Shown here one piece after another: positions 19,145 through 39,931 of a DNA stretch of 64,000 bases. The notes under the pieces were generated by a model. The model saw only the letters and a list, made by a program, of their open reading frames with translations, had not been told where the DNA came from and did not search any database. Source of the DNA: Bythopirellula sp. (GTDB lineage: Bacteria; Planctomycetota; Planctomycetia; Pirellulales; Lacipirellulaceae); contig OZ244170.1 of the NCBI GenBank assembly GCA_965216565.1, forward strand, positions 1,664,001 through 1,728,000, written 5' to 3'. Within the stretch, counting starts at the first letter, position 1. Each line of letters opens with the position of its first letter. Position numbers and translations under genes: made by a program.

Positions 19145-19210
19145 GACGGCCTAGGCAGTGATCGTTTCATATCGGTCGACGTGCTACTAAAGATTGAGCC
19201 AAGAGCCGAT

Positions 19211-19918
19211 ATGTCCGAGACCATTCCCATTCCTGGCTTTGCCGATCCGGTGAGTAGCCTGACGCACTTGCTTGGCGCTGCGATCTTTGCAGTTCTTTCT
19301 GTGCCGCTCCTGTGGCGAGCCAGCCATTCTAAGGCAGCCCTGGCGAGCGAGGCCATTTTCTGTATCGGGGCGGTGTCTCTACTGGCCATCAGTGGGATTT
19401 ATCATTCCGTCAATCCAGATGGTGCTGCACGTCAGATACTTCGGCGACTTGATCACGCTGCGATCTTTATCCTAATCGCCGCCTCTTTTACTCCCGCCCA
19501 CATTATTCTCTTCCGCGGCTGGAAACGATGGGGAATTCTCTCCCTGGTTTGGCTGTTTGGACTAGTGGCGATGACTTGGAAAATGATCTACTTTGACGAG
19601 ATGTCTCGTGCGGTCGGGGTCTCTCTGTACCTGATTATGGGCTGGATCGGCACAGGCACTGGAATCTTGTTGTGGCAAAGCTTCGGCTTCCGTTTTATGT
19701 TGCCGATATTCTTGGGAGGCGTGGCGTACTCCATCGGTGCCATTTTACAAAATTTAGGCTGGCCGACGTTGGTGCCCGGTGTATTTCAAGCCCACGAGTT
19801 GTTCCACATCTTGGTACTCATCGCCCTGGGGATCCATTGGGCGTTCAACTACTCCATCGCCGATGGCATGCGAACAGCACCGGTGAAAACGCTAAACGCA
19901 AAGAAGCTCGCGGCTTAG
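19211..19918 (+). CDS. Hemolysin III / PAQR family membrane protein
   Basis: SSLTH, SGIYH, RRLDHAAIFILIAASFTP and HELFHILV motifs; about 7 TM. Likely ATG at 19211. Confidence 0.92.
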   Translation: MSETIPIPGFADPVSSLTHLLGAAIFAVLSVPLLWRASHSKAALASEAIFCIGAVSLLAISGIYHSVNPDGAARQILRRLDHAAIFILIAASFTPAHIILFRGWKRWGILSLVWLFGLVAMTWKMIYFDEMSRAVGVSLYLIMGWIGTGTGILLWQSFGFRFMLPIFLGGVAYSIGAILQNLGWPTLVPGVFQAHELFHILVLIALGIHWAFNYSIADGMRTAPVKTLNAKKLAA

Positions 19919-20131: not shown

Positions 20132-20563
20132 CTAGCTACCACCCGAGTTCTGCTCCGTAAATCTCTGCATCGCCTTCAGCGTTGCGGGGCTCACGTGGTG
20201 CTCGATGCCTTCGCTGTCGGTAGCGGCAATAGCGTCGCTCACGCCTAACGCTTTCAGAAAATCGAACACGATCTGGTGCCGTTCGTGGCAGGCCTTGGCC
20301 AAGCGTCGTCCGGCATCGGTGAGTTCCAGCGGGCCGTAAGGATCGGTCTGCACAAAGCCATCGCGTTGCAGACGCCCCACGGTACGGTTGACCGTGACAT
20401 GGGTGACCTGGAACTGCTTCACGAGATCTACCGCCCGGCAGGTACCCTGCTCGTCGATGATCTCGGCAATGGCCTCGACGTAATCCTCAGCCAGTTCGGT
20501 CGCGTGATCCGACCGAGTCCGAGAATGTTGATTTTGCCTCGATTTAGCTGATTTCACGTTCAC
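20132..20563 (-). CDS. mntR: Manganese-dependent transcriptional regulator (DtxR/MntR family)
   Basis: EDYVEAI, HTH, RHQIVFDFL and DSEGIEHHVS (metal site). Short E. coli MntR-like form with no FeoA domain. Confidence 0.92.
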   Translation of the reverse strand: MNVKSAKSRQNQHSRTRSDHATELAEDYVEAIAEIIDEQGTCRAVDLVKQFQVTHVTVNRTVGRLQRDGFVQTDPYGPLELTDAGRRLAKACHERHQIVFDFLKALGVSDAIAATDSEGIEHHVSPATLKAMQRFTEQNSGGS

Positions 20564-20688
20564 TGTCCTTCGCTTCTACCTGCTCGAAACTTATTGTAGC
20601 TACTCCCACAGAATTCGCGAGTTGCACAGTATTCCCGGAATTCTGGCCCCTCAGCAGAGAAGATTCCGCAAAGATCGCTTCAACCCCC

Positions 20689-20716
20689 TTGCATCAATTG
20701 TAGCCACGGCTACAAT
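20689..20716 (+). promoter_or_regulatory. Sigma70-type promoter for the DUF1559 gene
   Basis: TTGCAT (20689-20694), 16-bp spacer, TACAAT (20711-20716); overlapped by the palindrome below. Confidence 0.6.
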
Positions 20717-20717
20717 T
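20696..20717. promoter_or_regulatory. Putative MntR operator (perfect 10-2-10 palindrome)
   Basis: AATTGTAGCC-AC-GGCTACAATT has the TAGC-N4-GCTA core of the enterobacterial MntR box and lies next to mntR. Confidence 0.75.
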
Positions 20718-20723
20718 AGGTCG

Positions 20724-20745
20724 AAACTTAGCATCGGCTAAACCT
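20724..20745. promoter_or_regulatory. Second putative MntR operator
   Basis: AAACTTAGC-ATCG-GCTAAACCT has the same TAGC-N4-GCTA core, 28 bp downstream of the first box. Confidence 0.6.
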
Positions 20746-20785
20746 TGCAGTTCTGTCCACGTCCCCTCGCTATTTCAGAGATTAG

Positions 20786-21850
20786 ATGAAAAAAAATAAC
20801 GGTTTTACCCTAGTTGAACTATTGGTGGTCATCTCGATTATCGGGGTGCTCATTGCGTTGCTCTTGCCAGCGGTGCAGTCGGCCCGGGAAGCGGCTCGAC
20901 GTATGTCGTGCGGAAACAACCTCAAGCAGATGGGACTCGCCATGCAAGGCTACCATGCCGCCATGGGCCGATTCCCCTCGGGTTACGAGTCGCATCCTAC
21001 GAGTGACGGCAACGTGCCTGCGGGAGTTGTGATCGACAGTTCCACTTGGGATGCGGGCCCGGGCTGGGGCTGGGGTGCCCAGATCCTCGACTATGTCGAG
21101 CAAAACACCATTTCCCTAGGCATTCATGCGAAGGAGCCCATCTGGGAGCCAGACCACGCGGCACTGATCGCTGCCTCGCCGCAGTTGTTCCTGTGTCCCT
21201 CAGCCAGCGGCGACCAGCTGCCATTTGCCATTAAGGACGAATCAGGCGAACCGCTCCAGATCGCGGGCAGCGAGATCATTGTAGGTCGCTCCAATTACGT
21301 CGCCAGCCACGGCCAAGAGTCTTGCTGGGGAGAGTGTGGGGCGATGACCACAGGTACCGTGTTCACAGATATTTACACCAAGGAGACTAAGGTCATCGAT
21401 ATCCACGGCGATGTCTCGCTCGTCGCAGATGGACCTTTCTATCGGAATTCTAGAACCTCTATCAAGGAAATTACCGACGGAACTTCCTTCACCATTTTTC
21501 TGGGCGAACACTCTTCGCTTCTGAGTGAGAAAACTTGGGTGGGAGTCGTGCCCGGGTCGTTCACGCATCCAAACTTTACCTCTCCCGAAAATGGTCCCGA
21601 CGCGGCAGCCACCTATGTGCTGGTTCATGCCGGTCCTTCCGGCGGCGAGCTCGACATTACCGGCGAACCAATTATCCATCCCATCAATTTCCCCACCTAC
21701 CACGTCGGCCAAATGTTCTCCGAGCATCCCGGTGGTGGACAGGTTGGCTTTGGTGATGGGTCAACACGTTTTGTCTCAGACAATATCGATCTAATCTTGT
21801 TTGCCGAGCTCTCCAGCATTGCCGAAAGGGAACTGATTGAGGACTTCTAA
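20786..21850 (+). CDS. DUF1559 (prepilin-type N-terminal cleavage/methylation, H-X9-DG) protein
   Basis: GFTLVELLVVISIIGVLIALLLPAVQSAREAARRMSCGNNLKQ, ITDGTSFT and HPGGGQVGFGDGS (H-X9-DG). Confidence 0.96.
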   Translation: MKKNNGFTLVELLVVISIIGVLIALLLPAVQSAREAARRMSCGNNLKQMGLAMQGYHAAMGRFPSGYESHPTSDGNVPAGVVIDSSTWDAGPGWGWGAQILDYVEQNTISLGIHAKEPIWEPDHAALIAASPQLFLCPSASGDQLPFAIKDESGEPLQIAGSEIIVGRSNYVASHGQESCWGECGAMTTGTVFTDIYTKETKVIDIHGDVSLVADGPFYRNSRTSIKEITDGTSFTIFLGEHSSLLSEKTWVGVVPGSFTHPNFTSPENGPDAAATYVLVHAGPSGGELDITGEPIIHPINFPTYHVGQMFSEHPGGGQVGFGDGSTRFVSDNIDLILFAELSSIAERELIEDF

Positions 21851-22172
21851 ATTGTTACCTGGCAAGATTCACTTCCGATATGCGTCTTATTTCGTGCTTT
21901 CGATGATTTTCATCGGCTGTAGCGATTACCCTGAGTTTAGCTCCAAGGCGTACGATATTTCGTCAGCCCTGTACTCCACATGCCGACGGGAAAACGCAGA
22001 GAATCTCGGTGAGATTTCTGCACTCACGAAGTCTGCGTTGGAAAACTCCGAGATCACGGCTCGTGAAGCAGCCTGGATCGAAGCGATTATTGCTCAGGCC
22101 GAAGCGGGTGACTGGGAAGACGCCGCTGAAGAAGCTCGATCTATTCTCGAAGCCCAGGTCACCGGACGATAG
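21837..22172 (+). CDS. Small putative lipoprotein
   Basis: Overlaps the DUF1559 stop. Hydrophobic stretch ending in lipobox-like FIGC, then a helical acidic domain. Start is uncertain. Confidence 0.7.
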   Translation: MRTSKLLPGKIHFRYASYFVLSMIFIGCSDYPEFSSKAYDISSALYSTCRRENAENLGEISALTKSALENSEITAREAAWIEAIIAQAEAGDWEDAAEEARSILEAQVTGR

Positions 22173-39827: not shown

Positions 39828-39931
39828 CGGTGGGCCGCCGCTTCGCTTTGGTCCACCCTACAACCTTTGGCCCACCCTACAACCAGCCCCGACAGGGGCG
39901 ACAGTTAGTAGCCAGGGGCGCCAGCCCCTGG
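39828..39931. repeat. Cluster of two REP-like elements with a tandem duplication
   Basis: Minus-strand GTAGGGTGGACCAAAGCGAAGCGGCGGCCCACCG (39828-39861), near-tandem CTTTGG(T/C)CCACCCTACAACC (39846-39884), then AGCCCCGACAGGGGC...CCAGGGGCGCCAGCCCCTGG. Confidence 0.7.

Follow-up and report, generated by a model that had tools for sequence, protein, structure and literature searches.

We examined the surroundings of a DUF1559 gene in a 64,000-nucleotide stretch of DNA from Bythopirellula sp. (contig OZ244170.1, positions 1,664,001 to 1,728,000; hereafter the window), for which a preliminary description had proposed a manganese (Mn)-responsive module. An mntR gene is divergent here from the DUF1559 gene and from a small gene for an anchored partner protein, and two putative operator boxes lie at the predicted promoter. 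The features, in window coordinates, are listed below.

20132..20563, minus strand: mntR, a short E. coli-type Mn-sensing DtxR-family repressor (match to NF008273, alignment to 1ON1 and 2H09).
20689..20716, plus strand: predicted sigma70 promoter of the DUF1559 operon (-35 TTGCAT at 20689-20694, 16 nt, -10 TACAAT at 20711-20716).
20696..20717, no strand: putative operator box 1, a perfect palindrome AATTGTAGCC-AC-GGCTACAATT spanning the promoter spacer and the -10.
20724..20745, no strand: putative operator box 2, AAACTTAGCATCGGCTAAACCT, 28 bp 3' of box 1 and at or just past the predicted transcription start.
20786..21850, plus strand: DUF1559 (PF07596) prepilin-like protein of 354 amino acids, class III signal G/FTLVE (from domain matches, structural model and residue conservation).
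21852..22172, plus strand: small membrane-anchored partner of about 106 amino acids, a lipoprotein here and a predicted four-helix bundle (longest open reading frame (ORF) from 21837).

The palindrome, the -35 and -10 elements and box 2 were all present where the preliminary description had placed them. Its divergent mntR was also borne out, the product scoring 171.2 bits over its whole length on the MntR equivalog model NF008273 (cut-off 153), and its DUF1559 gene was recovered as an ORF with PF07963, PF07596 and the H-X9-DG domain. A sigma70 consensus scanner did not call TTGCAT-16-TACAAT, and its sole intergenic call was a 9/12 site on the minus strand. Among orthologues, TTG stood in the -35 register at 53 of 60 first boxes compared with 9 of 68 later boxes. 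The core of the locus box agrees with the enterobacterial MntR box AACATAGCnnnnGCTATGTT (PMC1698941). Since the bare core TAGC-N4-GCTA was not enriched in the genome (48 observed, 48.2 expected) and 23 equally perfect 10-2-10 palindromes occur there, the palindrome by itself is weak evidence, and its significance comes from its conservation and location. A half-site ATTGTAGC was also observed at 20593-20600, just 5' of the mntR start, at the position where a complete third box stands in the close relatives L002-L005.

All six ligands of Bacillus subtilis MntR (D8, E11, H77, E99, E102 and H103; PMC9861239) are kept in the focal regulator, where D27, E30, H96, E118, E121 and H122 occupy the corresponding positions of the 1ON1 alignment. 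The genome encodes three short MntR paralogues, each close to a box. MntR very probably binds the boxes directly and represses from them, and Mn is likely to be the main signal.

To rank sites across the 5.2-Mb genome we used a box matrix of 20 sites near troA, mntR or a porin-like gene, with DUF1559-proximal sites excluded. Box 1 matched the matrix consensus at 21 of 22 positions and ranked first in the genome (third in the leave-one-locus-out ranking), while box 2 scored 16.2 and ranked eighth. The top eight matches comprised the focal pair, one mntR/PF13557 site, one troABCD site, two more DUF1559 loci (one of them two-boxed) and one secreted-protein gene. Three of the 63 DUF1559 loci in the genome scored above 21 and the remaining 60 scored at most 5.3; a score of 20 was reached by 0.07% of random 800-bp windows. 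Raw motif counts, which showed no enrichment, were not used as support.

Outside the focal locus, a box doublet at G000:442032 precedes another DUF1559 gene, downstream of which lies a second mntR. Further strong sites separate a third mntR from a PF13557 porin-like gene (G000:470982) and precede a TroABCD-type ATP-binding cassette (ABC-3) operon (G000:1595575) as well as the genes for a His-rich small protein and a DUF1559 protein (G000:4378817). The third mntR is divergent from the porin-like gene, which is followed by genes for a His-rich protein and a CusB-like adaptor (L214:5404-9525). The two other boxed DUF1559 paralogues (L213:4030-7205 and L216:2810-4340) occur, one with a 410-amino-acid membrane protein and the mntR copy, the other after the His-rich small protein. 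The preliminary description had noted the absence of MntH and SitABCD; no Mn importer was seen among the ORFs between 12000 and 30000 of the window, but the genome does have the boxed TroABCD-type operon (G000:1595553-1600026). A weaker box (score 18, with an upstream TTG) at G000:3516736 (L217:4730-8204) lies about 90 bp before the gene for an 1125-amino-acid secreted protein with a PEP-CTERM-like tail, which is a possible extra member of the regulon.

Among 301 genomes drawn from the class, 150 were found to contain the DUF1559 clade (E<=1e-30), almost always as a single copy. For the comparison, we took one locus per genome from 102 genomes, selected among the better-scoring matches and not at random; one genome with a cut-off upstream region (G643) was dropped, leaving 101. 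A box preceded the clade gene in 60 of the 101 genomes at a score of at least 7, a threshold set after inspecting the data and near the 99th percentile of random 800-bp windows, and in 53 at a score of at least 12. MntR was encoded in all 60 boxed genomes (34 inside the fetched locus, 26 elsewhere) and was found in none of the 41 box-less genomes. Most boxes were doublets 25-34 bp apart, with 27-28 bp the commonest spacing (27 of 68 spacings). On the protein tree the box/MntR state changed 10-12 times, and a careful protein tree gave 8 independent pairs, all concordant (p=0.008); in these tests the MntR trait was entered as equal to the box trait, and one genome (G415, 18% filled) was left out of the trees.

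The partner gene adjoined the DUF1559 gene in all 69 loci examined. A troA gene lay within about 3 kb of the module in 7 of 20 family/order loci, and directly after the partner gene in L010, L011, L015, L017 and L018, so that DUF1559, partner and troABCD apparently form a single operon in several relatives. An MntR box was present in the troA promoters of 10 of 11 MntR genomes (7 at a score of at least 12) compared with 0 of 19 others. Among five genomes of family f26, 11 of 12 exact box matches were at the DUF1559 clade gene (7), troA (3) or a DtxR-like gene with a porin-like neighbour (1). A scan of all prokaryote genomes for the double-box pattern, made with no DUF1559 query, returned at least 120 loci; among the matches listed, 36 of the 37 from Planctomycetota hold a DUF1559 gene (22), a tro gene (11), mntR (19) or a porin-like gene (4). 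Conservation of motif and synteny, on which the preliminary description had made its proposal depend, was therefore retained, with the doublet, the promoter register and the partner kept across several families of the class. In L112 and L129, two records under the title Candidatus Kuenenia, a double box precedes a DUF1559 clade member (38-39% identity); the module may truly have spread to anammox bacteria, or the contigs may be mis-binned.

The boxes might instead serve only mntR autoregulation, or be read by another factor, such as a TetR protein whose operator resembles them, or the DtxR-like tails carried by TroC/TroD, which would leave the DUF1559 gene a bystander. A TetR gene with the same TGTAGC-N4-GCTACA core was indeed found beside 68 of the 120 double-box loci listed from all prokaryotes, but none of the 68 was among the 37 Planctomycetota records listed; with no adjacent cognate TetR in loci L001-L092 and a best match in the focal genome of 34 bits, we rejected TetR as the binder of the boxes. 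Both permeases of the ABC-3 operon (L215:4422-7024, equivalent to G000:1597421-1600026) carry a C-terminal DtxR-like PF02742 domain, reminiscent of Chlamydia YtgC-YtgR, but their tails had no match to the DNA-binding domain PF01325. In addition, the DUF1559 gene has retained its box in 26 genomes whose mntR lies elsewhere, and the motif switches when the stand-alone regulator switches, as described below. We consider this explanation very improbable. As a separate observation, a TetR with the readable operator TGTAGC-N4-GCTACA appears to be widespread: among L093-L212 (e.g. L099, L114, L116, L120) a TetR gene with a GTSDRML motif, usually with a small membrane protein encoded divergently, was seen in Alphaproteobacteria, Actinomycetota, Bacillus and others.

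In the genomes lacking MntR, other palindromes were found in the corresponding positions. Motif 2, TTTTG[GA]-N4-[TC]CAAAA, was derived de novo from 19 troA promoters of non-MntR genomes alone (best 13 sites). At a score of at least 15 it stood before the DUF1559 gene in 28 of the 41 MntR-less genomes compared with none of 1083 other windows taken from those loci, which are mostly coding and therefore a lenient control for an AT-rich motif, and it scored at most 6.9 in the troA promoters of 11 MntR genomes. Exact matches in five genomes numbered 24 (2 for the reversed control), and each of these genomes encodes one clear long DtxR-family protein. In G462, the long DtxR gene and a divergent porin-like gene have motif 2 between them, and the motif also precedes a second DUF1559 gene (L370:1500-2837), mirroring the extra boxed paralogues of the focal genome. 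Several other motif 2 matches precede unrelated genes or no clear gene. Motif 3, TTAG-N6-CTAA, was picked by eye after the data had been seen and stood before the DUF1559 gene in 6 more MntR-less genomes (0 of 1084 controls). It was also present before troA in two of the three motif-3 genomes whose troA locus was examined, and a long DtxR was present in all four of the six motif-3 genomes that were checked.

One of the three palindromes thus preceded the DUF1559 gene in 94 of the 101 genomes. Because the replacement palindromes are again common to troA and the DUF1559 gene, the link of the clade to troA survives the swap of regulator. That the clade gene carries the same repressor-type motif as the metal ABC importer, even across lineages whose motifs differ, suggests that it is likely switched on by Mn starvation. 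The best model match of the long regulators was the Mn-type MntR, at scores under its cut-off, and they were closer to SloR and ScaR than to IdeR and DtxR; SloR and ScaR sense Mn, and 5ZR4 is a mycobacterial MntR. A riboswitch scan of 17 box-less loci returned no Mn riboswitch and a single cobalamin riboswitch, which in L273 lies before another gene, about 2.4 kb upstream; a scan of the window and six other loci returned none. Reading ORF starts, we saw no conserved metal-gene neighbours in the 41 box-less loci. The focal genome itself has a perfect palindrome with the TTAG-N6-CTAA core at L397:3560-3590 (G000:2878565), without a clear neighbouring gene, and no long DtxR was found in this genome.

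The same regulon could also respond to another or a mixed metal, with the regulators and TroABCD sensing and carrying Fe2+ (or Zn2+) and the DUF1559 protein helping to acquire that metal. Chlamydial YtgABCD, in which a DtxR domain is fused to the permease as here, is regulated by iron (PMC5599777), the His-rich sites would fit Zn and Fe too, and TroA scored best on a zinc model (AztC 210 bits, MntC 184; all under their cut-offs) and passed no Mn-specific cut-off. We nevertheless find this unlikely, as the focal regulator passes the cut-off of the Mn-binding MntR equivalog and keeps the Asp8-type site, the replacement regulators are nearer to Mn-type proteins than to DtxR/IdeR, and no iron-uptake gene was seen under any box.

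The DUF1559 protein gave domain matches to PF07963 and PF07596 (161 bits and 35 bits) and scored 30.7 on TIGR04294 (cut-off 19). Its class III signal has Glu at +5 and exceeded the cut-off of TIGR02532, and F7 and E11 are invariant. No match was found to PF01297, the cluster A-I metal solute-binding protein family of TroA, SitA and ZnuA; PF07596 and PF07963 were the only matches. The AlphaFold2 model (predicted local distance difference test 79, predicted template modelling score 0.79) has a long N-terminal helix. In structural alignment the top 20 rows were all pilins or pseudopilins at low Z, the best being PilA4 (Z 4.8, root-mean-square deviation 3.8, 122 aligned, range 7-344), and a Foldseek search gave no match at E<=0.001. 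The structural alignment suggests a pilin core with a large insertion. A protein atlas search returned DUF1559 clusters only. A prepilin peptidase (Peptidase A24) and secretins are encoded in the genome.

Residue conservation was examined in both subgroups of the clade and, against 60 paralogues, in the 120 top-scoring homologues, the latter a set biased towards conservation. Four histidines (H242, H281, H298 and H306) were present in 91-100% of both clade subgroups compared with 0-2% of 60 paralogues, and E288 and D215 were listed as further clade-specific residues. H175, C180 and C184 were confined to the longer subgroup, occurring in 5-9% of the shorter one, and C180 and C184 may form a disulfide. 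H314 (97% of paralogues), E241, D231 and D324 are family-wide. The ligand list of the preliminary description therefore stood in part: H298 and H306 are clade-specific, while its SHGQESCWGEC cluster is a feature of the longer subgroup alone, and H314, the His within its SEH motif, belongs to the family as a whole. The four clade histidines may form a shared metal site, and we lean towards the DUF1559 protein binding metal itself, although with much less assurance than we attach to binding of the boxes by MntR.

The overlapping lipoprotein of the preliminary description was kept with two changes. A lipobox (IGC) is present here, but the lipobox Cys was missing, by eye, in about 9 of 23 aligned partner homologues, which have a hydrophobic anchor instead, and the partner is thus not a lipoprotein in all orthologues. 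Its start is more likely at TTG 21852, 8 nt after GAGGA (21839-21843), in which case an overlap with the DUF1559 gene is not required and is probably absent. The partner has no conserved His and matched no Pfam or NCBIfam model; 187 relatives were found. A fold search with the predicted four-helix bundle gave no match at E<=0.001, and its top fold match, SmbP (E 0.71), was disregarded as not significant.

Taken together, we propose that the locus is a core member of a planctomycete Mn-starvation regulon, and that the pilin-like protein and its partner help to capture metal in the envelope; we give this reading a probability of roughly 0.6. Membership in the regulon is well supported by the operators and their conservation, whereas the metal and the biochemical role are what we infer. 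Mn-loaded MntR would bind both boxes and block the promoter by occlusion. At Mn shortage the DUF1559 protein and its anchored partner would be made alongside the TroABCD importer and the porin. Prepilin peptidase would cut the leader, the N-terminal helix anchoring the protein in the inner membrane or in a type 4 filament, and the inserted region would present H242, H281, H298 and H306 with nearby acids for binding of Mn2+ or a Mn complex. The metal would enter, possibly, through the co-regulated PF13557 porin-like protein and then pass from the DUF1559 protein to TroA.

Several observations weigh against this proposal, among them the TroA scores, the iron regulation of YtgABCD and the late choice of the box threshold and of motif 3 given above. 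With a quick tree the number of independent pairs was only 4 (p=0.125). An upstream box scoring at least 12 was present at only one of the 27 mntR loci, and most distant mntR genes are without a box. The two strong Nramp-family genes of the focal genome have no box, unlike in classical MntR regulons, and the genome-wide counts of MntR patterns were not above those of the reversed control. Both other boxed DUF1559 paralogues are among the 60 without the clade histidine set. None of the three motifs was present in 7 of the 101 genomes. A troA gene was not found in 10 of the 41 MntR-less genomes, which include 5 of these 7, and five of the 10 keep motif 2 before the DUF1559 gene.

This persistence of the module in genomes where troA was not found would also fit an operon that is Mn-regulated but whose protein is a modular adhesin or enzyme, attaching to or dissolving Mn-bearing particles or organic complexes, or replacing a Mn-dependent envelope function in starvation. 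Modular pilins can be metal-dependent adhesins (PilB, PMC8179133), and the four invariant histidines are equally compatible with a catalytic metal site. The apparent operon fusion with troABCD and the co-regulation with the porin-like gene point instead to an import chain, Mn scarcity is not a condition under which one would expect an enzyme that needs Mn to be induced, and we regard an adhesin or enzyme as improbable.

Extending the metal-capture proposal, we tentatively raise the idea that planctomycetes use DUF1559 proteins as an alternative to solute-binding proteins and TonB receptors. The proteins would be exchangeable pilin heads, each specific for a substrate and paired with its own anchored partner, mounted on the machinery of type 4 filaments. 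The focal clade would be the Mn-capturing head, delivering from the porin or cell surface to TroABCD. If this is true, the other 60-plus DUF1559 paralogues could be decoded from their operators.

The system was compared with several described ones. It shares with the enterobacterial and alphaproteobacterial MntR regulon (mntH, sitABCD) a short MntR, the TAGC-N4-GCTA core (PMC1698941), a box over the promoter and an ABC-3 importer as target, and differs in its flanks (AA[TG]TG/TT, not AACA), in its box-less Nramp genes and in targets that include the pilin-like protein with its anchored partner and the PF13557 porin-like protein. The Stenotrophomonas MntR module (PMC13217887) is likewise a pair of extracytoplasmic genes specific to a lineage, which came to light by way of an MntR box between -35 and -10 and has a proposed role in metal acquisition; there the products are a TonB-dependent receptor plus a thioredoxin-fold protein of the periplasm and expression data are given, whereas here an unrelated pilin and helical bundle are found and the evidence comes from regulator replacement. 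Streptococcus sanguinis PilB has a class III signal peptide and a pilin core with an extra functional region, and binds Mn2+ and Mg2+ (PMC8179133). In PilB that region is a C-terminal vWA adhesion module, whereas here it is predicted to lie inside the pilin core, with the gene in a metal-uptake regulon.

Treponema TroABCD/TroR and Chlamydia YtgABCD-YtgR resemble the focal system in having an ABC-3 transporter with DtxR-like permease fusions. Here both permeases are tailed and a stand-alone regulator tracks the operator, and the passages of PMC5599777 examined describe no DUF1559 partner. With the DUF1559/SBP_bac_10 (PF07596) family the focal protein shares the domain, the N-methylation motif and the H-X9-DG motif; Tuwongella DUF1559 genes are often flanked by signal-peptide genes (PMC8567305). 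What sets the focal clade apart from the family at large is that it is mostly single-copy, carries histidines of its own, is paired with a dedicated helical partner and has a defined regulator. Our literature search found no stimulus-specific regulator for any DUF1559 member. Nor did titles, the beginnings of abstracts and text passages link DUF1559 to a metal regulon; as most subscription journals and the curated regulon databases fell outside the search, an earlier description is possible.

DUF1559 is the largest paralogue family of Planctopirus limnophila, with 68 members of unknown function, two of them essential (PMC10632474). Through the present analysis, a single defined and mostly single-copy clade is linked to one stimulus, one likely class of ligand and four residues that can be tested, with evidence that repeats across three operator motifs, and the old guess that DUF1559 proteins are solute-binding pilins becomes directly testable. 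It also outlines a manganese regulon for Planctomycetia, for which the literature search found no printed description, and offers a general method, reading the operator of each paralogue, for assigning substrates across the DUF1559 family.

Other features of the window were also noted. A Haemolysin-III-related (PF03006) membrane protein gene at 19181-19918 is convergent with mntR and was not seen conserved beside the module. Matches above Rfam thresholds were observed for a tRNA and for Acido-Lenti-1 RNA, at 508-580 and 39885-39931 (minus strand).

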